The notes below the pieces were generated by a model. It did no database searches, was not told where the DNA came from, and saw nothing but the letters and a program-made list of their open reading frames with translations. From NCBI GenBank assembly GCA_039932335.1, contig JBDTQH010000030.1:1593-65592 (forward strand): a DNA stretch of 64,000 nt, read 5' to 3'. Below are positions 381 through 60,932 of this stretch, piece after piece (within the stretch, counting starts at the first letter, position 1; every line of letters begins with the position of its first letter). This stretch comes from Chloroflexota bacterium. GTDB lineage: Bacteria; Chloroflexota; Chloroflexia; QHBQ01; JADMIH01. Position numbers and translations under genes: made by a program.

Positions 381-520
381 GTGAAGGGTGAAACGTGAGG
401 CGTGAAACGTGAGCTACTGCGTACTGCGTAGTTGTCAGTTGTCAGTATTACGGCGGTCGGCGGTCGGCGGTCTGCCGTCGGCGGTCATACGCAGTACGCA
501 GTACGCAGTACGAAATACGC
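381..520. repeat. composite heptamer-array element, copy A
   Basis: 20 consecutive in-phase 7-mers: GTGARRC x5, ACTGCGT x2, AGTTGTC x2, AGTATTA, CGGCGGT x3, CTGCCGT, CGGCGGT, CATACGC, AGTACGC-type x4. ACTGCGT (416-429) is the complement of the AGTACGC block (493-513). Confidence 0.9.
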
Positions 521-587
521 TATAATAGCGTCAGTCTTATATCCGGCGTGGCCGAGCCATAGCTATATATCGAGAGAGGCAATCTAA

Positions 588-1520
588 ATGAGTAAGAAGA
601 AAGACAAAAAGGACGATAAGAAGAAGTCAAGATCGTCCCCGACGCAGATAGAGAGCAAGATTGCGGCAGAAGTGCAGCCTGAGAAGATAGTGGGCGACGG
701 CTCACCCCGCATCGATTATCCACGCTATCGGGTCGAGCCTGGGAAGAACGTCTCGCTGAAGGACATAGACCCCGATGAGTCAGAGGGTTTCGGTACGAAA
801 GCGGAGATTGCCGCAGAGCTTGAGAGGCTGAACCAGAAGCTAAGCGATTTGCAGGAGCGCCTCTATGCTGAAGGCAAGCGGAGCATGCTAATCGTGCTGC
901 AAGCTATGGACACCGGAGGCAAAGACGGCACCATCAAGCATGTGTTCGAGGGGGTCAACGCGCAGGGGTGCCAGGTTGCCAGCTTCAAAGCGCCTAGCCC
1001 CGAGGAACTGGCTCACGATTTCCTGTGGCGCTGCCATCAGAAGACGCCGGGACGCGGCATGATAACTATATTCAACCGCTCGCACTATGAGGACGTGCTG
1101 GTGGTGAGAGTGAAGAAATTCGTGCCCGAAGAGGTCTGGCAGCAGCGATATAGCCTGATCAACGATTTCGAGAGGCTCCTCACGGAGAACAATACTGTGG
1201 TGCTCAAGTTCCTCCTGCACATCTCGAAGGACGAGCAGAAACGACGCCTGCAGGCGCGTATTGACACACCCGAAAAGGAGTGGAAGTTCGCCAGTGGTGA
1301 CCTTGTAGAACGAGCACTGTGGGACGATTACATGGCCGCTTACGAGGATGCCATCAATAGATGCTCCACTGAATATGCACCGTGGTACGTTGTGCCCGCC
1401 AACCACAAGTGGTACCGCAACCTCGTAATCGCACGGGCCATCACCGACACTTTGGAGGCGATGAACCCACAGTTCCCGCCACCGGAACCGGACCTCAAGA
1501 AGATAGTAATACCGGACTGA
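588..1520 (+). CDS. ppk2: polyphosphate kinase 2 family (polyphosphate:nucleotide phosphotransferase)
   Basis: 310 aa. Motifs LQAMDTGGKDGTIKHV (P-loop-like), FNRSHYEDVLVVRV and WYVVPANHKWYRN are typical of PPK2. Purine-rich RBS upstream. Confidence 0.9.
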   Translation: MSKKKDKKDDKKKSRSSPTQIESKIAAEVQPEKIVGDGSPRIDYPRYRVEPGKNVSLKDIDPDESEGFGTKAEIAAELERLNQKLSDLQERLYAEGKRSMLIVLQAMDTGGKDGTIKHVFEGVNAQGCQVASFKAPSPEELAHDFLWRCHQKTPGRGMITIFNRSHYEDVLVVRVKKFVPEEVWQQRYSLINDFERLLTENNTVVLKFLLHISKDEQKRRLQARIDTPEKEWKFASGDLVERALWDDYMAAYEDAINRCSTEYAPWYVVPANHKWYRNLVIARAITDTLEAMNPQFPPPEPDLKKIVIPD

Positions 1521-1550
1521 AATGCATGAGTAAGTGAGTGGCGTGGGCAA

Positions 1551-4490: not shown

Positions 4491-5399
4491 TCACGTCTTC
4501 TGAAAGATGAGGATATATTGGTGCAACTGGTTGGCTACGAACCTGTATGGGTAGCCGAAGGGATAGAGGCGCGGTGTCTGGTCGTACCAGATTTTGCAGC
4601 CCCTGTAGAGAAGACCATCCAGCGCGGAGAGACGTATCACAAGGTCCGCATGGAGCATGTTGTGGTGCTCAGCGGTCGGTTGAAGGTCCTTGGCGAAGAT
4701 TACCATGTATCCTGACGGCTTCAGCAATTGGAGCGACAGGGACATTATACTCGTCAACTCGTCAAGAAAAGCGGGATAATGAAGATTGCCAAGATCCTGG
4801 GTGCTTGCCGTGAAAGGTGTCGAGGAGGAATCGCCTGTTTTCTTCTTCTTCTCACCGTTCTGCGGCCTGCGCATCATGTCGCCATAGGGAGGGTCGGTCA
4901 ACACCATGTCATAACGGCGGCCAGCCACTTCAGCCCGGTCGAGCATCTGGCGCGAGTCGGCGGCTATGGCAGTCTGTATGGGTAGGCCCTCCTGAGTAGC
5001 AACGCTATGGTAGGTCTCTATATAGTCAGCGGAGAGATCGACGCCTACGGCGTTGCGCTCCGCGAGAGAACAGCCCAGCAGAGTGCCGCCCACGCCCATA
5101 AACGGGTCGAGCACCCATTCACCACGCCTGGTAAAGAACTCTACTATCTTTGCCATCAATTGGGGTGGCTTGGGCGAGGGGTGGATGCGCCGCAGATTAT
5201 GGCCGTAGGATTGCGGGCCTGTGGTCGGGTAGGCGGTGGCGTCTACAGACGACAGGAAATGCACCCACTCGCGCCCCGTAAGGTCGTTCAGACGGTTTCT
5301 GGGGTCCCAGATTGAAGTCTGGGGTGTTAGTTTCGCCTTGGGAGCTTTAGTTTCCCGAAGCGACCGTTCGTATTTTGGGCGACGCTGTTCCTGGGCCAT
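4491..5399 (-). CDS. DNA methyltransferase, DPPY type (N6-adenine or N4-cytosine)
   Basis: 302 aa. HPSPKPPQL followed by AdoMet motif VLDPFMGVGGT, with catalytic LTDPPYG further downstream. GAGGAAG RBS. Confidence 0.8.
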   Translation of the reverse strand: MAQEQRRPKYERSLRETKAPKAKLTPQTSIWDPRNRLNDLTGREWVHFLSSVDATAYPTTGPQSYGHNLRRIHPSPKPPQLMAKIVEFFTRRGEWVLDPFMGVGGTLLGCSLAERNAVGVDLSADYIETYHSVATQEGLPIQTAIAADSRQMLDRAEVAGRRYDMVLTDPPYGDMMRRPQNGEKKKKTGDSSSTPFTASTQDLGNLHYPAFLDELTSIMSLSLQLLKPSGYMVIFAKDLQPTAEHHNMLHADLVIRLSALDGLLYRGCKIWYDQTPRLYPFGYPYRFVANQLHQYILIFQKT

Positions 5400-5466: not shown

Positions 5467-6540
5467 TTACGGACTGGTCTTTACCCAGTAGAGCATTTCC
5501 TGCACGGTGTTGCCTTTGTATGTGCGGGTTGTGCTATCGGCATCGGACCTGAAGCGGCGGTATTCACATGCGTACACTTCTACGTTCCCGCGCTGCGACA
5601 GCACCTCTACAACACGCTCGTGTGGAATGATTCCCTCATTGTTGTAGCTCATAAGGATCCAGTCTGCATGCGACTCGCAAACCAGCCGCGACAGGCTCTC
5701 TTCGGCCTGGCCGTTCTTGCAGTAGGCCGACATCTTGCCGTTCACGGCGCGCAGCCCGGCCACGCCCTTTATCTCAGGCTCATCGCCGAGCGCCAATGTT
5801 TCCAGCAGGTGATAATTTGTGGCGTACTGGCGGGAGTTATAGGGGGGATCTATGTAGAGCAGGTTGCACTCTTGCTGAGGGACTAGCTCGTTTGCGTCGG
5901 CCTGGTTCACGCTGTGATCGTGCGCGCTGTGTACAATCTGCGGCACATTAAGCATCAAGGGCTTATGGGCGCGTGGGTCCCAGCCTTTCAGGTAGGCGGC
6001 GTATGTGCCCGCCACGTTCGCGACGCGGGATACAGCTTCTATAAGGGCGGCCAGCAGCAAGTAACGCTCGCCGTCGGTGAGCCAACCCATCTCGCTCCAC
6101 CAGTTTATCTCTTTGCGAATGGCATCGATCCTCAGGGCGTTGGCGGAGGTGAAGTAGCGGCGTCCATCCACGCCGTCGGGCGAATAGTTGCGGTAGCAAA
6201 ACCCCTCGACTCCGCGCAGATTGTTCAAATGAGCAAAGATAAGCTGGATCGACACGGAAGGCCCGATACCTGGATCAACAACGCCCGCGTTGATCACACC
6301 GCTAAAAGTGGGCGCATCGTTCAGAGCGATGTAGGCATGCTGGAAGGCATACGAATAAGCCATAATATCGCCCGATATCACGCGCCAATCCTGCCGCTTC
6401 AGGTGACGAGCCACCGAGGTCGTGCCCGTGAAAGGGTCGCAGACAGTGAGCGGCCGAGCAGGCGTGCTGACAGCACGATGCATCATCAACACGTCGTCGA
6501 TGAAGTTTAGTAGACTGTCCTTGTTCCCGAGGTAACGCAT
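5467..6540 (-). CDS. D12-class (Dam-like) N6-adenine DNA methyltransferase
   Basis: 357 aa. N-terminal RYLGNK, motif I CDPFTGTTSV, catalytic YIDPPYNSRQY. Confidence 0.8.
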   Translation of the reverse strand: MRYLGNKDSLLNFIDDVLMMHRAVSTPARPLTVCDPFTGTTSVARHLKRQDWRVISGDIMAYSYAFQHAYIALNDAPTFSGVINAGVVDPGIGPSVSIQLIFAHLNNLRGVEGFCYRNYSPDGVDGRRYFTSANALRIDAIRKEINWWSEMGWLTDGERYLLLAALIEAVSRVANVAGTYAAYLKGWDPRAHKPLMLNVPQIVHSAHDHSVNQADANELVPQQECNLLYIDPPYNSRQYATNYHLLETLALGDEPEIKGVAGLRAVNGKMSAYCKNGQAEESLSRLVCESHADWILMSYNNEGIIPHERVVEVLSQRGNVEVYACEYRRFRSDADSTTRTYKGNTVQEMLYWVKTSP

Positions 6541-6626
6541 CGCTGATCATCTCCACGGGGTTACGATACCGGACACTATAATTTAGCTATTATGCCCTAT
6601 GTTGGATGGCGATGCAAGAACGGGGA

Positions 6627-6759
6627 ACGAAACGTAAAGAGTAAAACGTAAAACGGGGGATATTGCGTACTCCGTACTGCGTAGTTGTCAGTTGTCAGTT
6701 GTCAGTATTACGGCGGTCGGCGGCCTGCCGTCGGCGGTCATACGCAGTACGCAGTATTG
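6627..6759. repeat. composite heptamer-array element, copy B
   Basis: 19 in-phase 7-mers in the same module order as copy A: GTAAAAC-type x4, (A)CTGCGT-type x3, AGTTGTC x3, AGTATTA, CGGCGGT x2, CTGCCGT, CGGCGGT, CATACGC, AGTACGC. Confidence 0.9.
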
Positions 6760-6780
6760 TAAGTGTTCAGACTTGAGATG

Positions 6781-6895
6781 CAGCGGGGGTGCAGGGGCGA
6801 AGCCCATGACGGGGTATGGGGGTGTCCCCCATTCTCCCATTCTTCTTTAGACTCCCCTCCCACGCGTGGGAGGGGTTGGGGGTGGGTCTTCCCAT
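6781..6895. repeat. G-rich mosaic repeat, copy 1
   Basis: Contains GCAGGGGCGAAGCCC, a GGGGGTGTCCCCC hairpin, and a perfect 22-bp palindrome CCCCTCCCACGCGTGGGAGGGG (6854-6875). The palindrome overlaps GGGAGGGGTTGGGGGTGGG (6868-6886). Related copies lie at 15111, 23620 and 52960. Confidence 0.85.
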
Positions 6896-7016
6896 AGCGA
6901 GATGAGAGGTTGCTCCACCCTAAATCTGAACATTTACGCAGTAACGCGCGTTTTACGTTTCCCGCCATATATGATAAACTTCCCCTGTTAAACAGCCTTG
7001 GAAGGGACTTATTTCG

Positions 7017-7964
7017 TTGCAGTTTGATCCGGTACAAACTATAGAGGCCTGGGGGCTGACTGTGCTGCTCTATCCTGGGGTGGTGTTTGCGGCCCTGGTT
7101 GTGCTGATCGGCGAATGGTTGGTGGGCACGATACGCCCGCTGCTCGCGCCCAGGCTCTACCGTGGGCAGGCGCGATTGTACAGTCTGCTCCAGCCCCTCT
7201 ACACGTTCCTGAAGCTACTGGGGCGTCAGGAGGCTGTGCGCTGGCAGCGTTCGGGCGATAGGCCTGTAGCGCCTTCACACCCGGGCGAGAGCATCCTGGG
7301 GGTTGTGGGAGCGATTGCCCCGCTGCTTGCCCTGTCGTTGCTGCCCACGGGGGGCAATTCTATCGAGCGCCAGCTGGGCGCTGTGGGCGACCTGCTGATT
7401 GTGCTGCTCCTCCTGGCTGTACAACCCGTTGCAAACGCAATACTGAAGTTGCGCGAGGGCGGGATTGAGGCCATGAACGGGGCACGTGCTCTTGGCCGCT
7501 TACTGGCAGGGTTACTGCCGACCATGCTGTTGCTGGCCGCACTTGTCGAGGTATCCGGGGGACATTCGCTGCAGTTGGCGAATCTTACCGTAGCACCACT
7601 GACCGCTCAACAGACGCTCGTAAGGCTACTGGCCGGTGTGGCCCTAATTGTCGCGCTCCCCTGGTGGTCAGGCCTGAGCAAAGAGCAGGCCAGTGGGAGT
7701 GCCGGCGCATACGCTGGACGGCTCCTGCAATCGGTGGCTCTCGCTGCGTTCTGGGCTGTTGTAATCCTTCCCGCGCCGGGCGCTCTGCCCTGGGCGGTGG
7801 CTCTATTTATTGCAGCAACGCTCTTTGCCTACGTCGCGATGCGCACAATAGCAGAGCGATGGGCACCTGCCCGCCGTGAAGGTGACGCAACGAACCTTCT
7901 CTGGGCAACCACCCTTCCACTCGCCGCAGTCGCGCTCATACTGGCGTTCTGGACTGGGGTGTGA
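7017..7964 (+). CDS. polytopic membrane protein; N-terminus weakly resembles the NuoH/HycD family
   Basis: 315-aa hydrophobic ORF with a TTG start. The segment RLYSLLQPLYTFLKLLGRQE resembles the GLLQPxADxxKxxxKE signature of NADH dehydrogenase subunit 1-type proteins. No other complex I or hydrogenase genes are nearby. Confidence 0.45.
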   Translation: MQFDPVQTIEAWGLTVLLYPGVVFAALVVLIGEWLVGTIRPLLAPRLYRGQARLYSLLQPLYTFLKLLGRQEAVRWQRSGDRPVAPSHPGESILGVVGAIAPLLALSLLPTGGNSIERQLGAVGDLLIVLLLLAVQPVANAILKLREGGIEAMNGARALGRLLAGLLPTMLLLAALVEVSGGHSLQLANLTVAPLTAQQTLVRLLAGVALIVALPWWSGLSKEQASGSAGAYAGRLLQSVALAAFWAVVILPAPGALPWAVALFIAATLFAYVAMRTIAERWAPARREGDATNLLWATTLPLAAVALILAFWTGV

Positions 7965-8020
7965 CCGGGGTGACCACCACTGACCACTGTCCCTAAAGGG
8001 AACCCCGACCGCCGACCGCC
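7961..8020. repeat. short fragment related to the heptamer elements
   Basis: TGACC-containing units at 7962, 7971 and 7981, plus CGACCGC x2 (8006-8019). The latter is the complement of the GCGGTCG core unit. Confidence 0.4.
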
Positions 8021-8988: not shown

Positions 8989-10065
8989 ATGCCCGATTTA
9001 GCCAATCTGCCCGGCCAGATTACATCAGCGGGACTTAGCGCGCTGGGGTCCAGCGCGAATGCACACGCTCGCGTTTCCATCATAATACCCACCCGCAACG
9101 GTGCAGACCTGGTGCACGAGTGCCTTAATGCGCTCTGGCACCAGACCTTCCACGACTACGAGATCATAGTAGTTGATGATGCATCCACCGACAACACATA
9201 TGAGGTCCTGCTGGGCTATCCTGAGGTGAAGAAGATAGTCAGGCTGCCGGGGGAGCGGGGACACGGCTTCGTGGCGGCCGTGAACGCTGGGCTTGCCGAG
9301 GCAGTAGGGGATATCATCGTGTTGCTCAACAACGATGCCGTACCCGACCCCACCTGGCTTGAGGAATTGCTGGGCGGATTTGATAGGCACCCGGGGGCGT
9401 CAATGGCTGCGAGCAGGCTCATGCTCTACAGCAAGCCCGACCACTTTCACTCCACCGGCGACTACTATGGTCTCGACGGCGTGCCGAACAGCCGAGGCGT
9501 GTGGCAGCTTGACACCGGCCAGTACGACCAGGAAGAAGAAGTGTTTGGGCCGTGCGCCGCAGCCGCTGCCTACAAGCGCGACGTGCTGATAGACATAGCA
9601 GACTGCGGAGGGACAGAGCCACCAGGCAGCGTGCTCGACCCGCAGCTATGGATGTATTGCGAGGACGTTGACCTTAACCTGCGCGCCCGCCTGCGGGGCT
9701 ATCGCACAGTATATGTGCCGACGGCCAGGGTGTTGCACCGCCTCAGCGCAACGGGCGGCGGCGCACTGGCCTCCTACTATGTGGGGCGCAATTTCATCTA
9801 CCTGCTTGCAAAGGACATACCGGCCCGCATCATCCGGCGAAACATTGGCAGAATAGCGAAGGCGCAGGCACACTTCGCCCTGGAAGCGGTGCGCCACATA
9901 CGCTATCCCGCCTCCCGCGCACGCTTGAGGGGCATCATAGCAGGCCTGCTTACGTGGCCCCGCGTGCTCCCCGCCCGCAAGAGGCTGTGCGATACAGCCC
10001 GCATCACGCCGTCACAGTTCGAGCGCGTAATCACGAGATTCGGCGGTCGGGAGGCCGGCAAATAG
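8989..10065 (+). CDS. family 2 glycosyltransferase
   Basis: 358 aa. VSIIIPTRNGADLVHECLNALWHQTFHDYEIIVVDDASTDNT is a classic GT2 N-terminus. DxD-like NNDA motif. Confidence 0.85.
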   Translation: MPDLANLPGQITSAGLSALGSSANAHARVSIIIPTRNGADLVHECLNALWHQTFHDYEIIVVDDASTDNTYEVLLGYPEVKKIVRLPGERGHGFVAAVNAGLAEAVGDIIVLLNNDAVPDPTWLEELLGGFDRHPGASMAASRLMLYSKPDHFHSTGDYYGLDGVPNSRGVWQLDTGQYDQEEEVFGPCAAAAAYKRDVLIDIADCGGTEPPGSVLDPQLWMYCEDVDLNLRARLRGYRTVYVPTARVLHRLSATGGGALASYYVGRNFIYLLAKDIPARIIRRNIGRIAKAQAHFALEAVRHIRYPASRARLRGIIAGLLTWPRVLPARKRLCDTARITPSQFERVITRFGGREAGK

Positions 10066-10140
10066 GGGCTATGGCACGCTGTTTGCCGTAAGAAATCAGT
10101 GCGCCCTCTCTGGTCGGTCGGCCGTCAAACGTGGATAACC

Positions 10141-10169
10141 TTGCATAAATCGTGGTGTTAACGTATAAT
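10141..10169 (+). promoter_or_regulatory. sigma-70-type promoter upstream of greA
   Basis: TTGCAT (10141-10146), 17-nt spacer, TATAAT (10164-10169). Confidence 0.6.
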
Positions 10170-10195
10170 AGCGCAACCTACAGAGGTAACGCGAG

Positions 10196-10233
10196 CTGAG
10201 AGCGACCGCATAAGCGGGCATCTCAGTTTTTTT
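10196..10233 (+). terminator. intrinsic terminator-like hairpin inside the greA leader
   Basis: CTGAGA...CCGC-ATAA-GCGG...TCTCAG hairpin (10196-10226) followed by T7 (10227-10233). It ends 41 nt upstream of the greA ATG. Confidence 0.55.
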
Positions 10234-10274
10234 CTATCGCAGGCGCGGATAAAGGCGCCCAAAGAGGGAACATT

Positions 10275-10742
10275 ATGGTAATGGATAAGCCTGTTTACCT
10301 GACAGCTGAGGGCAAAGCCGCCCTTGAAGAAGAACTCAGCCACCTTAAGATGGTGCGCCGGCCGGAGGTCGCGGACCGCATCCAGCAAGCCAAGTTGGAC
10401 GGCGATGTCAGCGAGAGCGGTGAGTATGAGGACGCCAAGAACGAGCAGGCGTGGGTGGAAGGACGCATCCGCACGCTTCAACATATGCTGCAAAACTCGC
10501 GCATCTTCGAGGAAACTAAGAGCGACACGATTACGCTCGGCTCAACTGTGCATATACGTGATGGCGAAGGCACCGAGTACCATTGGAGAATGGTCGGCTC
10601 TGCCGAAGCCAACCCACGCCAGTCACGCATATCCAACGAATCACCCGTCGGTAAAGCGCTCATGGGCAAAAAGAAAGGCGAGAAAGTTAGCGTTGACACG
10701 CCAGGTGGTAAAGAAGAATTCAGCATCCTTAAAGTAGAATAG
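10275..10742 (+). CDS. greA: transcription elongation factor GreA
   Basis: 155 aa. LTAEGKAALEEELSHLKMVRRPEVADRIQQAKLDGDVSESGEYEDAKNEQ matches the GreA coiled-coil domain. The C-terminal domain ends in a VDTPGG motif. Confidence 0.9.
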   Translation: MVMDKPVYLTAEGKAALEEELSHLKMVRRPEVADRIQQAKLDGDVSESGEYEDAKNEQAWVEGRIRTLQHMLQNSRIFEETKSDTITLGSTVHIRDGEGTEYHWRMVGSAEANPRQSRISNESPVGKALMGKKKGEKVSVDTPGGKEEFSILKVE

Positions 10743-10774
10743 ATCCGGCGTTCCAGTGGACCGTAAACACGCAT

Positions 10775-10795
10775 GAACCGGCCCCTGGCCGGTTC
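10775..10795 (+). terminator. hairpin downstream of greA
   Basis: GAACCGGCC-CCT-GGCCGGTTC, a 9-bp stem. The downstream T-tract is weak (TAACTTTG). Confidence 0.4.
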
Positions 10796-10878
10796 TAACT
10801 TTGTCCGCTGCCTTTATGAGAGGGATCGTATACGGTCTACTTTCGTAAGCGCACCATGAGCAAGCTCGGGAGATTTAG

Positions 10879-12414
10879 ATGGCTGAAGATTACTTAACTG
10901 AATTAGATATGGGCGAGCAGGAGCAGATGAGGCTCGGCAAGCTCCAGGAAATGCGCGAGATGGGGCTTGACCCCTACCCGGCGCGCGCCAACCGCACGCA
11001 CGTGGCCAGGGACGCTATTGCTCAGTTTGAGGAATGGGAGGCGGTCCACGGAGGTTCGGAGGAAGCGCAAGCGGAGAACCCGCCGCCACAGGTGACGCTT
11101 GCCGGGCGCATGAGGCTGCGCCGCACAGGCGGCAAGGTTACATTCGCTCATATTGAGGATGAATCGGGGCGTGTGCAGCTTTACTTTCGCGTGAACGACC
11201 TGCAGATGCCGCCCTGGGATTACGACGCGGTAAATCGCCTGCTCGACCTGGGCGATTTTGTGCAGGCAAGCGGCTTCATGTTCCGCACACGCACAGGCGA
11301 AGCCACTCTGCACGTGCAGGAGTACATGCTGCTCTCGAAGGCGCTCCACCCGCTGCCTGACAAGTACCACGGTCTGTCGGACGTAGAGACACGCTATCGC
11401 CAGCGTTACCTCGACCTGATCGCCAACGAGGAGTCGCGAGATGTGTTCAAGGTGCGCGCCCGCTTTGTGTCGCACATCCGCACATTTTTAGATGCTCGCG
11501 GCTTTATGGAGGTCGAGACGCCGATTCTACAGCCTCTTTATGGCGGAGCGAGTGCGCGTCCCTTCACGACCCACCACAACGCCCTTGACCAGGACCTGTA
11601 TCTACGCATAGCCGATGAGCTTTACCTGAAGAGGCTTATTGTCGGCGGCTTTGAGCGAGTGTATGAGATCGGGCATGATTTCCGCAACGAAGGCATCGAT
11701 GTCAAGCATAACCCTGAGTTCACCATGCTCGAGTTGTACCAGGCATACGCCGATTACAATACGATGATGGAGACCCTAGAGGGGATGATATCGGAGATTG
11801 TGAAGGAAGTACACGGCGGCTACACGCTGGAATACCAGGGGCAGACGCTTGATTTCACGCCTCCGTGGCCGCGAGTCGACTGGCGAACTGCTCTCAGGGA
11901 ACAGTCGGGCATAGACATCGCGGACTACCCCGATACAAAGGAGCTGGTAAGAGTGGCGCGCGAGAAGGGTGTTGACGTAGAAACGGGCGCGAGCCGAAGC
12001 GCCGTGCTTGATGAGCTTCAGGGTCACTTCATAGAGCCTCTGCTGGTGCAGCCGTCGTTCTTGCTCGACTACCCTGTGGAAGTGTCGCCTCTTGCCAAGA
12101 AGAAGGAGGGCGATCCTGCCGTGGTGGAGCGGTTCGAGGCGTTCGTGGCGACCTTCGAGGTAGCCAACGCATTTTCCGAGCTAAACGACCCACTCGACCA
12201 GTACGACCGCTTCAAGGAGCAGGTAGAGGCAGGCAGGGGTGGCGACGAGGAAGCCCACCAGATGGACCGCGACTATATCACCGCCCTGATGATGGGTATG
12301 CCCCCCACAGGCGGTATGGGCGTTGGCATAGACCGCCTGACCATGGTTCTCACGGACAAGTATTCTATCCGCGATGTGATCCTATTCCCGCACATGAAGC
12401 GCATAGAAGAGTAA
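10879..12414 (+). CDS. lysS: lysine--tRNA ligase (class II)
   Basis: 511 aa. OB-fold N-domain and class II motifs (FMEVETPILQ, YEIGHDFRNEG, GMGVGIDRL). Confidence 0.95.
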   Translation: MAEDYLTELDMGEQEQMRLGKLQEMREMGLDPYPARANRTHVARDAIAQFEEWEAVHGGSEEAQAENPPPQVTLAGRMRLRRTGGKVTFAHIEDESGRVQLYFRVNDLQMPPWDYDAVNRLLDLGDFVQASGFMFRTRTGEATLHVQEYMLLSKALHPLPDKYHGLSDVETRYRQRYLDLIANEESRDVFKVRARFVSHIRTFLDARGFMEVETPILQPLYGGASARPFTTHHNALDQDLYLRIADELYLKRLIVGGFERVYEIGHDFRNEGIDVKHNPEFTMLELYQAYADYNTMMETLEGMISEIVKEVHGGYTLEYQGQTLDFTPPWPRVDWRTALREQSGIDIADYPDTKELVRVAREKGVDVETGASRSAVLDELQGHFIEPLLVQPSFLLDYPVEVSPLAKKKEGDPAVVERFEAFVATFEVANAFSELNDPLDQYDRFKEQVEAGRGGDEEAHQMDRDYITALMMGMPPTGGMGVGIDRLTMVLTDKYSIRDVILFPHMKRIEE

Positions 12415-12432
12415 GAATAGAGGGTAATAGAA

Positions 12433-12470
12433 GAGGGTGCCGGAAGTAGCCTCCGGCACTCTTTTTGTTT
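12433..12470 (+). terminator. intrinsic terminator after lysS
   Basis: GTGCCGGA(12437-12444)/TCCGGCAC(12452-12459) stem followed by CTTTTTGTTT. Confidence 0.6.
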
Positions 12471-12553
12471 CTTGTTCCGGTGGCCCATCTCTTGCATGTC
12501 TCAGGGGCGACAATAATAAAGTGTGTCCATATAAACACGCACGGAGTGTAGAG

Positions 12554-13579
12554 ATGGCCGATGTAAAAGAGAAAGTGCTGCCTGAGCATAACGTAAATAA
12601 GCCGCAAAACGGCGAACACGGAGTACCTGTGCACGAAAATGCACATGATAACCTGCCAGCGGGCACACGAGTGAAGGTAATAGTGAACCCGGCCTCGGGT
12701 AAGAAGGGTGGAATTACAACCAACGCAGCGGGGTCGGACGAAGTACGCCGGTTGCTGGAGATAAACGACATCGACGCGGATGTTGTAGAAACCGAGTACC
12801 CTGAGCACGCCACGGAACTTGCGAAAGCCGCCGCCAAAGATGGGTACGATATAGTTGTCGCCTGCGGTGGCGACGGCACAGTGGGCGAGGTGGCGAAGGC
12901 GCTTATCGGCAGCAGAAGAACAGCGCTGGGCATATTGCCGCTGGGCAGTGCGAATAATGTGGCGCGTATGATGAACGTGCCCTTCGATCTGGAAGGCGCT
13001 ACCGCTTTACTGCGCACAGGCAAGATTATCAATGCCGATGTAGGCCGCTGTAACGGCGAATACTTCCTTGAGACCGCGGGAGTGGGCCTTGATGCCGCGC
13101 TCTTCCCTATCTTAAACCAGGTGGATAAGGGTGAGTATATACGCCTGTGGGACGCTGTGAAGACACTCTTCAGGTTTCGCCCCAGAAGCGTCACGATGGT
13201 TGTAGGCAAGCGTGCTATCAGGATGAAGGCGCTGGTAGTGCTGGTTGCCAATGGCCCTTACTGGGGCTACTCAGTGCCCCTCGCGCCTGATGCGAAAGTG
13301 GACGATCAGAAGTTTGACGTGGTGGTGTTCCGCAACTTCAGCAAGACCGACTTTATGCGTCACATAGTCGGCTCGCTCATCCACCGCGACGACAAGCCCA
13401 ACCTGAACCCTTACCACAATCACCCCAAGCTGCGCACCTTCACCGCCCGCCGCGTCCAAATCTACGTATCAGACCGCAGGCCCTGGCCCGTCCACGCCGA
13501 CGCCCAACCGCGCGGCAAAACGCCCGCCATCATAGAGGTGGTGCCGGGGGCCTTGAGGGTGATTACGGGGAACGAGTGA
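12554..13579 (+). CDS. diacylglycerol kinase-family lipid kinase (YegS-like)
   Basis: I take the start at ATG 12554 (GGAG 7 nt upstream). The longer ORF from 12437 would overlap the lysS terminator. Motifs VIVNPASGKKGG and VACGGDGTVGEV. Confidence 0.8.
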   Translation: MADVKEKVLPEHNVNKPQNGEHGVPVHENAHDNLPAGTRVKVIVNPASGKKGGITTNAAGSDEVRRLLEINDIDADVVETEYPEHATELAKAAAKDGYDIVVACGGDGTVGEVAKALIGSRRTALGILPLGSANNVARMMNVPFDLEGATALLRTGKIINADVGRCNGEYFLETAGVGLDAALFPILNQVDKGEYIRLWDAVKTLFRFRPRSVTMVVGKRAIRMKALVVLVANGPYWGYSVPLAPDAKVDDQKFDVVVFRNFSKTDFMRHIVGSLIHRDDKPNLNPYHNHPKLRTFTARRVQIYVSDRRPWPVHADAQPRGKTPAIIEVVPGALRVITGNE

Positions 13580-13758
13580 GGCGGGGGGTGTGAGGTGTGA
13601 GGCGTGAAACGTGAGCTACTGCGTACTACGTATGACCGCCGACGGCAGACCGCAGACCGCCTGAGCGCCTGAGCGATTAGCCAAACTCAAATTAACCTTG
13701 GCGTTTCGATACCGTACTCACGTTTCACGTTTCACGCCTCACGCGCCTTACGTTTTAC
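13576..13758. repeat. composite heptamer-array element, copy D
   Basis: Left arm is GTGAGGC-type x6 (13576-13617), then ACTGCGT/ACTACGT, then the complement of the CGGCGGT core (13632-13659). Right arm is the complementary CTCACGT/TTCACGT x6 (13717-13758). Confidence 0.9.
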
Positions 13759-13761: not shown

Positions 13762-14247
13762 TCACCACACCTTCTTCTCAAACCTGTCCCCGATGATGGG
13801 GTATTTGAACCGCTTGCCCAGTAGGACCATTATGGCGGCTACTATGCCGTAGAGTATGCTGGCGATGAACCAGATGGCGAAGATGACCAGGCCCCATACG
13901 ACCCAGCGTGCTAATTCAGCGCCGTTGCCTTGCAATATGCCAACAATCGAGAAGCCGCCACCCACGCCGAGCACTACTACGAACAGCAGGTTTATCAGCA
14001 ACACCGAGCATTGATAGCACCCTGCCTGCTCGGAGTGGAAACGCACCTCCGGCGAGCGCTTGCTGTAAAGCCAGATGATACCCGCGATTGCCAGCGACAC
14101 CAGAAAGCCGAAGCCCAGGAAGCCGAACGCGATAGCCCCATGCGCCAGCGCGGAGAGTGCCCGCTCTGTGCCCTGGTCGGCCAGGCTGGCAGCCTGGAGG
14201 GGCAGATTAGTGGGACGGTTGGGTGGAGGAGGGTAGGGTGTTTGCAT
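13762..14247 (-). CDS. small membrane protein (DUF4870-like)
   Basis: 161 aa with four predicted TM segments and a Pro-rich N-terminus. The ERALSALAHGAIAFGF pattern is seen in DUF4870-type proteins. Confidence 0.6.
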   Translation of the reverse strand: MQTPYPPPPNRPTNLPLQAASLADQGTERALSALAHGAIAFGFLGFGFLVSLAIAGIIWLYSKRSPEVRFHSEQAGCYQCSVLLINLLFVVVLGVGGGFSIVGILQGNGAELARWVVWGLVIFAIWFIASILYGIVAAIMVLLGKRFKYPIIGDRFEKKVW

Positions 14248-15110: not shown

Positions 15111-15212
15111 GGTTGACAGGGCGCTCCCTGTCCGGGGTCTTAGGGGTGTCCCCTAAGACTCCTCTTCCTTTTTGACCCCCCTCCCACATGTGGGAGGGGT
15201 TGGGGGTGGGTC
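15111..15212. repeat. G-rich mosaic repeat, copy 2
   Basis: GACAGGG-CGCT-CCCTGTC (15115-15132), CTTAGGGG-TGT-CCCCTAAG (15139-15157), palindrome CCCCTCCCACATGTGGGAGGGG (15178-15199), and G-run motif 15192-15210. Confidence 0.85.
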
Positions 15213-15311: not shown

Positions 15312-15585
15312 AACAGAGAAAATAAGTCACAGGCGATCCTGCTTCGAACATTCCCTCGAAGTAGCCGCGCTTCGGAAACGTGAAACCGTCCAGCCAGCGA
15401 AGGCCGCGGTAGGCACGACTAAGTTGCGCCGGGGGCTCCCGTTACAGAGCTAGAGTGTGTCGGCAAGCAGAGACGCTGGGGCCGGAGCACTTGAAGAGGC
15501 TGCGACGGAGACGGAGCAGCGAACTGGGGTGGCACCACGGGCATTTGGCTCGTCCTCACAATGTTGAGGGCGGGCGATTTTGTTT
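15312..15585 (+). promoter_or_regulatory. T-box riboswitch leader with terminator/antiterminator
   Basis: T-box core GGGGUGGCACCACGGGC (15526-15542). Antiterminator: UGGGG(15525-29)/CCUCA(15554-58), 7-nt bulge UGGCACC (15530-36), ACGGGC(15537-42)/GCUCGU(15548-53). The competing terminator is GCUCGUCCUCA(15548-58)/UGAGGGCGGGC(15565-75) followed by GAUUUUGUUU. Confidence 0.75.
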
Positions 15586-15646
15586 AACTGGCTTGCTTTC
15601 CGGAGGCTCAGCGCACCGGCAGCCGGCACCCATGGAGGCCACTATT

Positions 15647-17425: not shown

Positions 17426-17432
17426 CGTGTCG

Positions 17433-17528
17433 TAGAAATGAGAAATGAGAAATGAGATTTTGAGCGCTGTTTCTATTCTCGACTGAGTTCCGATTCACTT
17501 ACTTCTCATTTCTCATTTCTCATTTCTC
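17433..17528. repeat. inverted heptamer arrays, (GAGAAAT)n ... (ATTTCTC)n
   Basis: TAGAAAT GAGAAAT GAGAAAT GAGATTT (17433-17460), a 40-nt spacer, then ACTTCTC ATTTCTC x3 (17501-17528). It fills the serA-fusion/aminotransferase intergenic gap. Confidence 0.9.
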
Positions 17529-17547
17529 GTCCCCCCAAGGAGCAACT

Positions 17548-19287: not shown

Positions 19288-19323
19288 AGAGCCGGGAGGT
19301 TACCCTCTCGGCTCTATTTTTAT
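19288..19323. terminator. bidirectional intrinsic terminator between convergent genes
   Basis: AGAGCCGGGAGG(19288-19299)/CCTCTCGGCTCT(19304-19315) stem, then ATTTTTAT. Confidence 0.6.
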
Positions 19324-42772: not shown

Positions 42773-42972
42773 TCTTGCCAACCGCACTGTACATTGAATA
42801 TGCGCAACGGCTCCTCTTTTATTCCGAAGATCTTCATAATCGCTTCACAATCTCCGGCTATACTTCTTTATGTACCGGTGCCCGTGACGACCGCCCGGTG
42901 AGATATAAGACGCCGATGGCAAGCGTCAGAACTCAAATGCAATCCGCAATCCAAAATACTATGAGGTGTGAA

Positions 42973-43656
42973 ATGGATAAAAATACCGACTGGAAGGTGC
43001 CTGCCGCGCTTATTCTCGCGGGATTAGCCCTGCTTGTGGCGCTCAGCGGGCGCAATGCTTTCCCGTTTGCAGGTGGCAGTGATGCGCCCACTTTGGTGAT
43101 CCGCGCCGACAACGCTCCGCCTGCTGTGATGTTCGGCATGAACGACTCCGGTCAGACGTATGGAACGACGCCCCCGGCAACCGCCGTGCCATTCAAGCAG
43201 GCGCCTGCACTGCCCGAGATGCCGGTGAGACCTGACATGCAGTACAACAGCGGCGGCACGATGACCTTTGATAACGGCTACAATTCCTTTGACAGCGTGC
43301 GCAACGGCGTTAGGAACATGGTTGGCCACTGGTCGTACATCTTCCGGTTCGCGGCACTGGCGCTGCTTCTCTTTCTGGCATATCGCTTCTTCACCCGCCG
43401 CCGGTGGAACAGACCCGCGCAGAACAGCTATGGGCAGGGACCCTGGAACTCGCCGTGGAGAGGTCAGGCCCGGGGAGAGTGGCACGGCCAGCCGCAAGCA
43501 CCCGGCCAGGGTCAGGGACACTGGGAATGGCATGGAGCCGAGCAGCCTGCTCCCCATATGCAGCCTCCTCCCGCTCCTCCCGCTCCTCCCGCTCCTCCCG
43601 CCCAACCTGATAATCATGGTGACATCGTGCGGCCTGAGCAGGGCAATCAGGAGTAA
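42973..43656 (+). CDS. hypothetical two-TM protein with W/G/Q/P-rich tail
   Basis: I prefer ATG 42973 (GAGGTG RBS). Longer starts would overlap the repeat. The TM segments are ALILAGLALLVAL and FAALALLLFLAY. The gene ends 11 nt before the response regulator gene. Confidence 0.5.
   Translation: MDKNTDWKVPAALILAGLALLVALSGRNAFPFAGGSDAPTLVIRADNAPPAVMFGMNDSGQTYGTTPPATAVPFKQAPALPEMPVRPDMQYNSGGTMTFDNGYNSFDSVRNGVRNMVGHWSYIFRFAALALLLFLAYRFFTRRRWNRPAQNSYGQGPWNSPWRGQARGEWHGQPQAPGQGQGHWEWHGAEQPAPHMQPPPAPPAPPAPPAQPDNHGDIVRPEQGNQE
43565..43600 (+). repeat. CTCCTCCCG x4 tandem 9-nt repeat (in frame)
   Basis: Four exact copies encoding (PAP)n. Confidence 0.9.
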
Positions 43657-49174: not shown

Positions 49175-49642
49175 TTGATATCCCGCAGAATAATCCTGGG
49201 CGTCGTGAGTATAGTCGCGCTCTTGCTGATGGCAGCCTGCGACAGCGGCGTACAGAATACACCTACCTCGCCGCCCCCCGCAGCGGCCACAATCACGCTC
49301 GAGACCAGCGGCGGCATTGCAGGCATACACAAAGTGCTTACTATAGACCCCACCGGCGCTGCCACCTATTCGGCAGGCTCTACCAGCAAAACCGGCCAGA
49401 TACCGCCAGCCGACCATAACCAGATGCTCCAACAGCTAACTAAAGCCGATTTCTTCAATCTGAAAGACACCTATGACAACGGCAACGTGGCCGACGACTT
49501 TTACTATAAGATCACAGTTAAGCAGACTGACAAGGCAAAGACAGTCACCGTAGCCGAGGTCGGCGGCAAAGACCTGACCCCTCAGGCCCTGCAAGACCTG
49601 ATCACCCAACTGAACAGCTTCCAGGACACGCTGGTCAAATAG
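49175..49642 (+). CDS. hypothetical lipoprotein
   Basis: 155 aa, TTG start. Signal peptide with lipobox LLMAAC. Confidence 0.55.
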   Translation: MISRRIILGVVSIVALLLMAACDSGVQNTPTSPPPAAATITLETSGGIAGIHKVLTIDPTGAATYSAGSTSKTGQIPPADHNQMLQQLTKADFFNLKDTYDNGNVADDFYYKITVKQTDKAKTVTVAEVGGKDLTPQALQDLITQLNSFQDTLVK

Positions 49643-49747
49643 GTGTCAGGATGTCAGTTACGACCGCCGACGGCCGACCGCAGGCTCACGGACTATTGAC
49701 ACCTTACACCTGATCCCTGACCTCTACGCAGTACGGAGTACGCAGTA
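49643..49747. repeat. degenerate heptamer-array element, copy J
   Basis: GTGTCAG/GATGTCA, the complement of the CGGCGGT core (CCGCCGA CGGCCGA), ACACCTT/ACACCTG, and TACGCAG TACGGAG TACGCAG. It starts at the stop codon of the upstream gene. Confidence 0.75.
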
Positions 49748-49765: not shown

Positions 49766-50242
49766 ATGTCAGACACGCCCGAGAGAACACTGCCTACGCA
49801 GCTTAGTAGCGTGGAGATACAGAAGATACTGCCCCACCGCTATCCATTCCTGCTAATCGACAAGATCATCGAGATAGAGTATGGCAAGCGGGCTGTTGGC
49901 ATAAAGAACGTGACTGCCAACGAAGAGTTCTTCCAGGGGCACTTCCCCGGCTTCCCTGTGATGCCTGGTGTGCTTATGATCGAGGCTATCGCGCAGGTGG
50001 GTGCTGTGGCAGTGCTTGGGATGCCGGAAAACAAAGGCAAGCTGGCAGTGTTCGCCGGTGTGGACGATGTACGCTTCAAGCGCCAGGTCGTGCCGGGCGA
50101 CACCCTTCGCATAGAGGTGACCCTCACCAGGCTGCGCGGCCCCATCGGGCAGGGAGAAGGCGTGGCGACAGTAGATGGTCAGGTCGCCTGCAAAGGCTCA
50201 TTCATGTTCGCGCTCACCAAAGTCGAGGGTATAGGCGGCTAA
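49766..50242 (+). CDS. fabZ: 3-hydroxyacyl-ACP dehydratase FabZ
   Basis: 158 aa. [13 protein letters not shown] and [16 protein letters not shown] motifs. Confidence 0.9.
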
Positions 50243-58981: not shown

Positions 58982-59065
58982 GTTGTCAGTTGTCAGTTGT
59001 CAGTTGTCAGTTGTCAGTTGACGGCGGTCGGCGGTCGGCGGTCGGCGGTCATACGCAGTACGAAC
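58982..59065. repeat. composite heptamer-array element, copy K
   Basis: 12 in-phase 7-mers: GTTGTCA x5, GTTGACG, GCGGTCG x3, GCGGTCA, TACGCAG, TACGAAC. Confidence 0.9.
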
Positions 59066-59069: not shown

Positions 59070-59408
59070 TCACTGCTTCCAGGCGTATAGCAGCACATGG
59101 TTGATAACAAGCACCACCGCGAAGACGAGCGCAAGCAAAGGCTGTCCGGCGGCTGCAAGGGCGGCTGCGGCGGCGCCAAAGAAGACCACTACAAAGAGCA
59201 AATGGAGCGGTTCCTTCAGGGGCACTGCAGCCCTGGGCGATGCGAATACGCCCCACAAGACCGCCGCCGCCAAGGGCGCACCTACCGCCAGGACGCTTTT
59301 TATAACCGTCCCGTCACCCGTCTGCCAGCCCCAGTAAGCAAGTCCGGCTAGCGCACACAACTCCAGAAGGAAACTCAGCGCCAGATTAGCGCTCTTCGCT
59401 GCCTCCAT
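59070..59408 (-). CDS. small membrane protein (DUF2568/YrdB-like)
   Basis: 112 aa counted from ATG 59408 (GAGGAG RBS). Four TM segments, and the LELCALAGLAYWGW pattern. Confidence 0.6.
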   Translation of the reverse strand: MEAAKSANLALSFLLELCALAGLAYWGWQTGDGTVIKSVLAVGAPLAAAVLWGVFASPRAAVPLKEPLHLLFVVVFFGAAAAALAAAGQPLLALVFAVVLVINHVLLYAWKQ

Positions 59409-59551
59409 ATAGATGGCCACTCCTCTAAAACATAATTCCACTGATTCTAGCACGTTTGAGTCAACCACGCGTGGTTGGCAGTGCGCTCCCTGTTCGGGTT
59501 TTGAGGGTGTCTCCATACCACTAGTCAAAACATCTGCACACTCTCTGCCTG

Positions 59552-59580: not shown

Positions 59581-59648
59581 AGCAATATCTATGGCTGACA
59601 TTTTACGCGCACCGACGCGCAGACTTATTCCAGTGGAGGAGACATTAC

Positions 59649-60842
59649 ATGAAACCCGAAGAAACCTCTGAGATCGATACATCAACAGAGCACGATACAA
59701 TGGACAGCCCTTCAGATACATCAAGCAGCAGCCAGACATCTGCCGTGACCACCGAACAACACGATACTTTCCCGATCCAGGGTATAGACTACATTGAGTT
59801 CTATGTAGGCAACGCCAAGCAGGCTGCTCACTTCTACCGCACCGCGATGGGCTTCAACATCACCGCCTACTGCGGGCCTGAGACCAAAGTGCGTGACCGC
59901 GCCTCATATGTGGTTGAGCAGGCGAAAATACGCCTTGTGCTGACCGCACCCATGTATGCCACCGGAGAGATCGCTGAGCATGTGTTCAAGCATGGCGACG
60001 GCGTAAAAGACATCGCCCTGCGCGTGCCTGATGTGGACTACGCTTACCACACAGCCGTCGAGCGCGGAGCCACAGGCATAACCAAGCCTCATACAGTTGA
60101 AGGCGAGAAAGGCCACATCCGCAAGGCAGCCATCGCCGCCTGTGGCGACACCATTCACACCTTCATCAATCGCGACGATTACGCTGGAACCTTCGCCCCC
60201 GGCTACCACAAGCGCGACATCCCCGGCATTCCCACCGGCGTCAAAGCTGTAGACCACATTGTGCTGAACGTCGAGCTTGGGAAGATGGACTACTGGGTGG
60301 AATATTATGCCCGCATCATGGGCTTCAGCCAGCTTCTCTCCTTCGACGACAAAGACATCTCCACCGAATACTCCGCGCTGATGTCCAAAGTGATGCAGGA
60401 CGGCACCGGGCGGGTCAAGTTCCCCATCAACGAACCTGCTGAGGGCAAGAAGAAGTCGCAGATCGATGAATACCTCGAGTTCTACGGTGGCCCAGGCGCA
60501 CAGCACGTAGCCTTGATTACAGGCGATGTGCTTGGCACGGTTACCAATCTTAAGAACAACGGCATGGAGTTCCTGCGCGTGCCCCACTCCTATTATGAGG
60601 ACGCTCCTGAGCGCGTTGGCGATATCAAGGAAGACCTCAAACGGCTTGAAGAGTTGGGCGTACTGATTGATCGCGACGACGAGGGTTATCTACTCCAGAT
60701 ATTCAGCAAGCCCGTGCAAGACCGCCCCACCCTCTTCTACGAAATCATCGAGCGTCACGGCAGCCGAGGCTTCGGCAAAGGTAACTTCCGTGCACTCTTC
60801 GAGGCCATCGAGCGAGAGCAGGAGCTACGGGGTAATCTGTAA
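59649..60842 (+). CDS. hppD: 4-hydroxyphenylpyruvate dioxygenase
   Basis: 397 aa, GGAGGAG RBS. Two VOC modules, with HIALRV-like, DHIVLNV, FYEIIER and GFGKGNFRALFEAIE motifs. Confidence 0.9.
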   Translation: MKPEETSEIDTSTEHDTMDSPSDTSSSSQTSAVTTEQHDTFPIQGIDYIEFYVGNAKQAAHFYRTAMGFNITAYCGPETKVRDRASYVVEQAKIRLVLTAPMYATGEIAEHVFKHGDGVKDIALRVPDVDYAYHTAVERGATGITKPHTVEGEKGHIRKAAIAACGDTIHTFINRDDYAGTFAPGYHKRDIPGIPTGVKAVDHIVLNVELGKMDYWVEYYARIMGFSQLLSFDDKDISTEYSALMSKVMQDGTGRVKFPINEPAEGKKKSQIDEYLEFYGGPGAQHVALITGDVLGTVTNLKNNGMEFLRVPHSYYEDAPERVGDIKEDLKRLEELGVLIDRDDEGYLLQIFSKPVQDRPTLFYEIIERHGSRGFGKGNFRALFEAIEREQELRGNL

Positions 60843-60848
60843 GCGGGA

Positions 60849-60932
60849 GTTGTCAGTTGTCAGTTATGGTGGTCTGCGGTCTGCCGTCGGCGGTCGTCAA
60901 CTGACAACTGACAACTGACAACTGACAACGAG
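60849..60932. repeat. composite heptamer-array element, copy L (hairpin form)
   Basis: 12 in-phase 7-mers: GTTGTCA x2, GTTATGG, the TGGTCTG/CGGTCTG/CCGTCGG/CGGTCGT core, CAACTGA x4, CAACGAG. The two ends are complementary to each other. Confidence 0.9.

Follow-up and report, generated by a model that had tools for sequence, protein, structure and literature searches.

Thirteen loci in a 64,000-nt stretch of a Chloroflexota genome (contig JBDTQH010000030.1, assembly GCA_039932335.1; hereafter the window) are built of short tandem arrays of heptanucleotide units, and the non-repeat junction sequences that they share show ten of them, as far as sequence comparison goes, to be diverged copies of one dispersed composite element that were not grown independently. 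The loci belong to the known class of intergenic heptanucleotide repeats (long simple sequence repeats, LSSR; short tandemly repeated repetitive sequences, STRR), and their architecture is a more elaborate, multi-layer variant of described repeats, new for the phylum and not a new kind of element. On balance, we favor the reading that they form a selfish or neutral, slippage-prone, dispersed family of palindromes that grows by insertion into existing hairpins and whose function is unproven.

Exact period-7 arrays of at least two copies number 31 in the window compared with 3.5 in dinucleotide-preserving shuffles, and those of at least three copies 13 compared with none, the comparison with shuffled sequence having been suggested, genome-wide, in a preliminary description of this DNA and run here on the window. 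Periods 5 and 8–12 displayed no excess in the same scan of the window, and period 6 a small one (26 vs. 15.1 in shuffles), in addition to one 9-nt array. That array, a perfect tandem (CTCCTCCCG)x4.1 at 43565–43601, in frame within the open reading frame (ORF) 42775–43656, is the sole array of at least three copies with a period above seven. Tandem Repeats Finder (TRF) reported about 35 period-7 rows distributed over all 13 loci, which were also printed in blocks of seven to display their units; both approaches confirm the arrays at every location first described, with 7961–8020 as a weak member. The summed length of the 13 loci is 1,321 nt, about 2% of the window, corresponding to about one array locus per 5 kb and to arrays in about one in five intergenic gaps. 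Counting arrays of at least 17 nt, density reaches 29.7 per 100 kb, which is 20–100 times that of unrelated bacteria (0.3–1.4 per 100 kb across 1.5 Mb of their loci, which had been retrieved for unrelated purposes).

Logan short-read assemblies of the same organism (SRR26386572/73/74) carry array sequence identical to the window, and the arrays are thus not assembly artefacts. Four Logan contig ends lie inside arrays (at 13626, 37921, 39037, and 60901), indicating that the arrays defeat k-mer assembly, and these breaks fit multi-copy or unresolvable repeats. The shuffle counts and the three independent short-read data sets refute chance or artefact as the origin of the arrays, an origin to which we attach virtually no credence; the same phenomenon in 15 related genomes also speaks against an artefact, and nothing was found in its favor.

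Four unit families, named here a (GTGAAAC, GTGAGGC, GTAAAAC), b (TACGCAG; variants TACGGAG, TACGCAA), c (GTTGTCA; variants GTTGTCC, GGTGTCA), and d (CGGCGGT with a conserved CTGCCGT unit), make up most loci, primes denoting reverse complements (Table 1). The nesting order proposed at the outset, from GTGAAAC through CTGCGTA/TACGCAG and GTTGTCA/TGACAAC to a CGGCGGT core, holds in 12 of 12 applicable loci: those with these modules or the private GAGAAAT pair all obey the order a < b' < c < d core < c' < b < a', and arrays left of the core are always opposite in orientation to the same unit on its right. A permutation of module order gave p ~0.0015 by hand arithmetic, on which we do not rely, since homologous copies do not count as independent events. 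Homology is apparent from the non-repeat sequence between modules. The d-b junction CGGCGGTCATACGCAG recurs at six loci (four forward, two reversed), the junctions GTGAGCTACTGCGTA, GTCAGTATTACGGCGG, and GTCAGTTATGG are each common to two loci, the a module is headed by the leader CGGGGAACGA at two, and the core retains a string of ~18 nt, GGTCTGCCGTCGGCGGTC, in either orientation. The composite junctions of the window were found nowhere else in the contigs searched: a 34-mer across the c-d junction had no match in a collection of genome contigs, and a 20-mer across the d-b junction none in a collection of metagenome contigs, the source genome lying outside both. A CRISPR-like arrangement was ruled out, as there are no spacers.

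The heptamer register had been described as running unbroken across module boundaries. Within a locus this is untestable, since a new unit fits the grid in whichever rotation, and only phases across loci can be compared. These are constant from a to b' (+1 in 4/4 loci), from b' to c (0 in 3/3), and from d to b (+2 in 6/6), but vary from c to d (−1, −1, −3, −2, −3, i.e., three different phases), and the register also breaks inside the a module at 42621/42641 and 13736/13752. The lock therefore stands for three kinds of junction, and elevating it to a rule of grammar was an over-reading: register is preserved across junctions because junctions are conserved and units are gained or lost whole. 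Array copies at different loci differ by whole units, as slipped-strand mispairing expects, and the paralogous loci 381–520 and 6627–6759, for example, contain a5 b'2 c2 d5 b5 and a4 b'3 c3 d4 b2, respectively. The a arrays are the most degenerate, with 72–78% matches in TRF compared with 100% for c arrays.

Table 1. Heptamer-array loci of the window and one possible relative. Array span is the part to which the module order applies.
Position	Array span	Modules, + strand	Composition	Setting and further features
381–520	381–520	a b' c d b	composite: a x5 (GTGAAAC/GTGAGGC), b' x2 (CTGCGTA), c x2 (GTTGTCA), AGTATTA, d core x5, b x5 (TACGCAG)	divergent gap, ORF 28–303(−) / PPK2 gene 588–1520(+); TATAAT at 521–526; b'/b arms 16 nt, 100% complementary
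6621–6962	6627–6759	a b' c d b	leader CGGGGAACGA, a x4, b' x3, c x3, AGTATTA, d x4, b x2, inner palindrome, b x1, a'	divergent gap adjoining Dam-like methyltransferase gene; G-rich hairpins in the second inner palindrome, TGTTCAGA...TCTGAACA; right arm TACGCAG...GTTTTACGTTT at 6935–6960 (a' = GTTTTACGTTT); arms 6644–6669/6935–6960 85% complementary
7961–8020			weak/degenerate member: GTGACCGGGG, (GACCACT)x2, (CCGACCG)x2.3 = d' units	stop TGA of gene 7017–7964 inside first GTGA
13566–13758	13576–13758	a b' d' (unique) a'	leader CGGGGAACGA, a x6, b' x2, d' x4, unique loop, a' x5	fills convergent gap, DAGK-like gene 12437–13579(+) / DUF4870 gene 13762–14247(−); DAGK-like stop TGA inside first GTGAGGC; arms 31 nt, 84% complementary
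17433–17528			private pair (GAGAAAT)x3.4...(ATTTCTC)x3.7	between serA-serB 15455–17425 and aminotransferase gene 17548–18642; 24-bp perfect stem, 100% complementary
20048–20136	20050–20136	b' c (unique) b	b' x3 (ATTGCGT/ACTGTGT), c x4 (GTTGTCC), unique centre, b x2.4	divergent gap, 19348–20028(−) / 20166–20948(+)
37921–37950	37921–37950	b'	single array (TATTGCG)x4.3, b' variant	7 nt past PrsW gene stop codon; Logan contig begins exactly at 37921
38992–39107	39001–39107	c d b	leader-like GGGGACGGCGTG, c x6, GTTATGG, d x5 (degenerate; CTGCCGT present), b x3 (TACGGAG/TACGCAG)	co-directional gap; half element, not hairpin
40239–40298(+)	40239–40298	d' b	d' x5 + b x4	in frame inside ORF 39679–42624 (DUF6541 membrane protein), encoding loop TADGRRQTADQRSTQYAVRSS
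42621–42772	42621–42772	a b' d' c'	a (GTGAGGCGGGGG..., GTGAAAC, GTAAAAC), b' x3, d' x3, (GACACCT)x7 = c' variant	fills gap from stop of 39679–42624 (TGA inside first unit) to start of 42775; c-d-b block inverted relative to 381–520
49642–49747	49643–49747	c d' c' b	c-like x2, d' x3, c'-like (ACACCTT/ACACCTG), b x3	spans stop of 49175–49642 to ribosome-binding site (RBS) of fabA-like 49766–50242
58982–59065	58982–59065	c d b	c x5.6, d x4.1, b x2; transcribed strand reads b' d' c'	between two minus-strand genes, 4 nt from stop of DUF2568 59070–59528(−)
60848–60932	60849–60932	c d c'	c x2.6, GTTATGG, d x4, c' x4.6	18-bp perfect stem; fills gap HPPD gene 59649–60842 / FAA hydrolase gene 60941–61969; Logan contig begins inside c' array
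32877–32918			GTTTCACGTGAAAC (a' + a) twice, perfect 14-bp palindromes spaced by 14 nt	possible relative outside the 13 loci; downstream of dnaN 32946–34094(−)

The array at 6627–6759 is real but constitutes only the left half of a larger element at 6621–6962, whose right arm had been missed. Adjoining this element are two adjacent methyltransferase genes, 4491–5399(−), encoding an N6_N4_Mtase domain, and 5467–6540(−), of the D12-class Dam-like type; no restriction enzyme gene was recognised beside them. A second dispersed sequence, the G-rich palindromic motif GGGGTATGGGGGTGTCCCCCAT and its relatives, has one copy inside the element (6811–6836), an inverted pair at 53 kb (53011–53039/53171–53199), and a similar stem in the terminator-like site at 15134–15162.

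Comparison with related genomes indicates how such loci change. The closest genomes are soil and freshwater metagenome-assembled genomes (MAGs) labelled Chloroflexia, with LysS 79% and SerA-SerB 66–75% identical. Our sample of relatives comprises 14 loci from Chloroflexia MAGs that were picked via SerA-SerB rather than via repeats and carry labels such as L204 here. These contain 18.7 arrays per 100 kb, most of them with units that differ from those of the window, and include inverted pairs and two-layer nests, e.g., (GACGGTG)4 (AATTACG)5 (ACCGTCC)2 in L206. Unit a occurs in 7 of 15 relatives, b and c in 1 of 15 each, and d in none of the 15. The combination (GTGAAAC)n-TGATGCGGCTTGTG is present at two loci of one related MAG and therefore indicates dispersal; (GTGAAAC)n-TGATGCGGCTTG arms in the relatives serve as terminal inverted repeats. 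Judged from three orthologous sites, each genome evidently re-uses a few units of its own at many loci, and different genomes have different units at the same sites.

In the gap that separates the convergent DAGK-like and DUF4870 genes, GTGAAAC or GTAAAAC arms occur in the window and in L204, L207, L208, L209, and L212, although the flanking proteins are only 59–68% identical. The loop between these arms has four contents overall, namely b' d' (window), a short stem-loop (L212), unique sequence (L208), and the nested foreign palindrome GTCATTCTGAGCG.AGCGAAGAATCTCGTCC (L204, L207, and L209). At this site the outer GTGAAAC arms thus persist while the loop content turns over. Elsewhere in the window, the gap 28272–28666 contains a palindromic element, GTCATTCTTCAC...GTTCAGAATGAC at 28425–28510, that resembles the palindrome nested in the GTGAAAC hairpin loops of L204, L207, and L209; palindromes of this type look like a separate family akin to MITEs (miniature inverted-repeat transposable elements).

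The serA-serB and aminotransferase genes overlap compactly at ATGCAACTGA in eight relatives, whereas unrelated heptamer hairpins occupy the junction in the window, L200, L206, and L210. Relative to those eight, the hairpin at 17433–17528 is an insertion: the window junction (17414–17560) consists of ATGTAACTGA, the hairpin, and, where the new start codon lies, a tandem duplication of 8 nt (GCAACTAT/GCAACTAC; TRF row 17542–17560). The site is thus empty in eight relatives and filled in the window, but the duplicated ATGYAACT is not diagnostic of a target-site duplication because both genes need this sequence to stay intact. The serA-serB ORF itself is called from a GTG start at 15455, but most relatives have no match to its first ~64 codons (15455–15650), which hold a terminator-like hairpin at 15548–15575, and the true start probably lies further downstream.

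The third site is a loop of the DUF6541 protein, which is short in two homologues and in three others contains peptides that arise by translation of heptamer arrays (NYELRIT, encoded by AATTACG; FWILDF and PKSKIQNPKS, by GATTTTG and CCAAAAT). In the DNA of one of these three, an orthologue (L521; JGI Ga0467069_0000636), in-frame inverted pairs (GATTTTG)n...(CCAAAAT)n lie at 10530–10605 and 11219–11293, an inverted pair occupying the same codon position as the window array, and the same unit is also intergenic at 7242–7273. As this orthologue is called as two overlapping ORFs, 10001–10984 and 10918–12873, it may be frameshifted.

Measured from the stop codon of the gene upstream, nine window loci begin at −4 to +12 nt, and they end 2–66 nt before the next start codon. 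At 7961, 13576, and 42621 the stop TGA of three unrelated genes (7962–7964, 13577–13579, and 42622–42624) even lies in the first GTGA of the element. Three loci are in divergent gaps, one is inside an ORF, and 12 of 13 lie outside Pfam-supported ORFs, consistent with the initial account of 12 intergenic loci of which several fill the whole gap. Arrays also affect gene prediction: as written, (GTGAAAC)3 and (TGACAAC)3 have stop codons in each of the three frames, and their complementary strands have none. When the orientation of GTGAAAC and GTTGTCA arrays was compared with that of flanking genes at ~240 loci of other genomes, no clear bias emerged, as the stop-free orientation makes spurious ORFs that distort crude gene calls. 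In the window, ORF 6738–7037(−) is considered spurious because the extended element at 6621–6965 spans two inner hairpins closed by an a:a' stem.

The expectation that every locus folds into a long hairpin was only partly borne out. Six or seven of the 13 loci fold better than composition-matched shuffles, with RNA z scores of −3.1 (381–520), −3.7 (20050–20136), −4.2 (37921–37950), −5.6 (13576–13758), −6.3 (60849–60932), and −10.4 (17433–17528), and single-stranded DNA z scores of −4.4 for 13576–13758 and −6.5 for 6621–6965. Six fail on the + strand: the half elements 39001–39107 and 58982–59065 (z +0.3 each) and the loci 7961–8020, 40239–40298, 42621–42772, and 49643–49747 fold no better than shuffles there. 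At 42621–42772 the + strand scored +1.8 and the − strand −2.7. The better-folding strand is the G+T-rich strand and does not track transcription direction. In 13576–13758, variant units pair via G.U on the + strand, which is the more stable one (−86.3 vs. −76.7 kcal/mol). An RNA hairpin formed by G.U wobble pairing of GUUGUCA with CGGCGGU (6/7 positions by hand) was rejected, as loci with only c-d-b modules scored +0.3 and lie in both orientations relative to transcription. Likewise, the suggested role as terminators fails for the canonical type: the arrays lack a U-tract, and no match of a scan for intrinsic terminators (stem plus U-tract) overlaps any of them, although canonical terminators are present in the window at 15134–15162 and 19288–19315.

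Searches of other genomes recovered (GTTGTCA)3 from upwards of 117 genome contigs (Cyanobacteria, Planctomycetota, Acidobacteriota, Bacteroidota, and further groups), (GTGAAAC)3 from more than 120 contigs, about half of the matches listed being Chloroflexota of several classes, and (TACGCAG)3 from more than 120 metagenome contigs. GTGAAAC arrays also occur in Desulfococcaceae, Nitrospirota, and Verrucomicrobiota. In loci found through GTTGTCA or GTGAAAC arrays (L081–L197 and L279–L397), period 7 outnumbers periods 5, 6, and 8–11 about tenfold. The genome-contig loci comprise more than 100 different heptamer units, and one-third of their array clusters mix at least two units; inverted pairs occur in them, and multi-layer nests are rare. 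In other phyla, TAACTGA arrays co-occur with GTTGTCA arrays. A literature search returned nothing on heptamer arrays in Chloroflexota.

The analogues first suggested, STRR heptamers and the mosaics of repetitive extragenic palindromes (REP) known as bacterial interspersed mosaic elements (BIME), proved to be the right neighborhood. Over-representation of heptanucleotide repeats and the idea of polymerase slippage go back to Mrazek, Guo and Shah (2007), as summarised in PMC4679880. The window's arrays are LSSR, tandem repeats of a 5–11-nt unit that exceed in both length and frequency what composition predicts, and they are mainly intergenic. Further likenesses to LSSR and STRR are the many loci, the several unit families per genome, the scattered phylogeny, and slippage as the proposed origin. 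The STRR of Calothrix PCC 7601, as cited in PMC4692102, are cyanobacterial and have other units, whereas the arrays described here are from Chloroflexota and display a fixed nested order and conserved junctions. The STRR host is a heterocystous cyanobacterium, whereas the nearest genomes place ours in the Chloroflexia. STRR1–3 have the units CCCCAGT, TTGGTCA, and CAACAGT, none of which has a counterpart among the canonical units of the window.

In Xanthomonas, Rehm et al. (2015; PMC4692102) described 70–75 convergent pairs of GGGAATC arrays per genome that are capable of forming stem-loops or cruciforms, with the repeat type kept and its length variable between related genomes; convergent arrays of the same unit lie close together in the window as well. 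However, Xanthomonas GGGAATC and Nostoc GGGGA(C/T)T repeats consist of a single G-rich unit and form G-quadruplexes, whereas the window has at least five unit families in layers nested around a non-array core, and GTGAAAC, TACGCAG, GTTGTCA, CGGCGGT, and GAGAAAT contain no tracts of three or more G. MacGregor (2015; PMC4679880) reported TAACTGA arrays in Beggiatoaceae, cyanobacteria, and Bacteroidetes, mixed heptamer assemblages in Microcystis, Gramella, and Elizabethkingia, and 7-nt indels between strains. TAACTGA is one base from the CAACTGA (= TGACAAC) found here and is also intergenic and cross-phylum, but in the BOGUAY genome it forms short, oriented arrays just upstream of start codons that are almost never inverted, whereas arrays in the window abut stop codons and are often inverted pairs. 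Given the inverted pairs of Xanthomonas and the mixed assemblages of these other genera, calling the architecture undescribed, as was first done, goes too far.

Similar to REP, BIME, and REP-derived hairpins (REPINs; PMC3116915), the loci are mosaic extragenic palindromes that occur at gene 3' ends or between cistrons in both orientations, in families that are genome-specific and persist for long; the same source mentions other elements inserting into REP loops (IS1397). REP arms, in contrast, are unique palindromes of 20–40 nt and not tandem heptamers, and REPINs depend on a REP-associated tyrosine transposase (RAYT), of which there is none among the ~60 ORFs of the window. As in MITEs, terminal inverted repeats are present (a...a', b'...b, and c...c' arms). 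Elhai and colleagues are said to have found in 2008 very small elements (small dispersed repeats, SDR, 21–27 nt) nested in heptamer arrays of Nostoc punctiforme, along with nested insertions; the nearest counterpart here is the d core of ~22 nt, CGGCGGTCTGCCGTCGGCGGTC, which lies between arrays in either orientation and is unrelated in sequence to the SDR. A catalogued RNA family, a possibility raised in the preliminary description, did not emerge, as Rfam 15 returned no match at gathering score over the whole window.

In the scenario that we propose, arrays would grow and shrink via slipped-strand mispairing, and the nest would be built by successive insertion or copying of array-bearing palindromes at the apices of hairpins or arrays already in place. 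Layers would then be the older the farther out they lie; the GTGAAAC layer is the most degenerate and most widespread, and the CGGCGGT core is private to this genome, being absent from all 15 relatives. Intrastrand template switching, or selection for pairing, could maintain the match between arms. The elements, presumably selfish or neutral in the main, would expand until coding or RBS constraints are met, and this halt could be the reason why they abut stop codons and fill gaps. Hairpin copies would add stem-loops without U-tracts at mRNA 3' ends as a REP-like side effect and not as a cause. Since no target-site duplication was recognised, we infer mobility from dispersed homologous copies only. 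Several observations weigh against this reading. No transposase, integrase, or RAYT-like gene is among the ~60 ORFs of the window, none of the window loci has a convincing target-site duplication, the stratigraphy draws on a small number of genomes (relatives covering 233 kb), and more variants occur in the d core than in the c arrays. In addition, the retention of GTGAAAC arms next to proteins that are only 59–68% identical is hard to reconcile with pure neutrality and points to some selection or repeated re-seeding.

The main rival to a selfish or neutral family holds that the loci are selected RNA elements, i.e., long hairpins without U-tracts at gene 3' ends or between cistrons that would, as has been described for REP, shield upstream mRNA from 3' exonucleases, insulate convergent or neighboring transcription units, or modulate translation termination near the stop codon. 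The start of nine loci close to an upstream stop codon agrees with such roles, as do the a...a' hairpin conserved in several diverged lineages at the DAGK-like/DUF4870 gap, the six or seven loci that fold far better than shuffles, and the G.U pairing that renders the + strand of 13576–13758 more stable. We nevertheless consider this explanation rather unlikely. About half of the loci form no hairpin, the c-d-b block is found both along and against the direction of transcription (39001–39107 vs. 58982–59065 and 42621–42772), three loci are in divergent promoter gaps without a gene 3' end, and one copy is inside a coding region. The better-folding strand merely tracks G+T-richness, and the arrays match neither a terminator pattern, despite canonical terminators elsewhere in the window, nor an Rfam family. 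By comparison, a multivalent lattice for a protein with a 7-nt or 7-bp footprint (a cold-shock-domain or S1-type RNA binder, or a DNA regulator with a GTGAAAC half-site) would account for a period, not a sequence, that is conserved across phyla, and it could draw on the wide distribution of GTGAAAC arrays (about half Chloroflexota among the matches listed), on the operator-like appearance of the two perfect GTTTCACGTGAAAC palindromes, and on the binders proposed for TAACTGA repeats (PMC4679880) and postulated for the Nostoc heptamers, which are reported to affect expression of recF and recO (bioRxiv 10.1101/2022.06.06.494920). However, because the period is conserved across genomes and the sequence is not, a sequence-specific protein lattice, as initially suggested, is unlikely to be the general cause. 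Array-rich loci contain more than 100 different units, and a single sequence-specific binder cannot explain the arrays because the unit vocabulary differs per genome of the clade at the same sites. As arrays also occur in both orientations and inside an ORF, and no candidate binder was identified, we regard the lattice as quite improbable.

The idea that the arrays are contingency loci, in which gain or loss of units switches neighboring genes by phase variation or frameshifts the DUF6541 gene, had also been raised for the spacers between genes, and it finds no support there: the flanking genes are housekeeping genes without surface or virulence bias, and most arrays lie past stop codons, where their length is irrelevant to reading frame and promoter spacing. 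A one-unit change at 40239–40298 would indeed frameshift the DUF6541 gene, since seven is not a multiple of three, the L521 orthologue flanked by arrays is called as two overlapping ORFs, and the array at 381–520 abuts a TATAAT box, but phase variation remains a very remote explanation overall. Another reading is that active machinery, RAYT-like or unknown, would target arrays or hairpin apices already present and copy or convert period-7 arrays into them. This proposal is doubtful; it is compatible with orthologous sites (a junction, a convergent gap, and a protein loop) that carry genome-specific units and with more than 100 units across phyla at a fixed period. If true, it would amount to a self-propagating system for writing arrays, and the nested layers would record successive invasions instead of passive slippage.

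The over-representation of 7-nt repeats has been an open question since 2007, with function hinted at only indirectly in Nostoc, Xanthomonas, and Beggiatoaceae. This Chloroflexota clade offers a dense natural data set that combines conserved sites, genome-specific units, persistent outer arms, and in-frame copies in protein loops, and such series could separate slippage from active copying and selfish spread from function at the RNA level. In practical terms, wherever the arrays sit at a gene boundary they break up short-read assemblies.

The window is otherwise an ordinary chromosomal stretch that contains no tRNA genes and a single occurrence of the cyanobacterial HIP1 octamer. Its genes include lysS, greA, serA-serB, rimO, dnaN, accA/accD, a sigma-70 factor, and two-component systems, among others. 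The possible relative downstream of dnaN consists of two exact matches to GTTTCACGTGAAAC, compared with 0.12 expected, that flank ATCC...GGAT, and could represent an 18-bp hairpin or a candidate operator pair.

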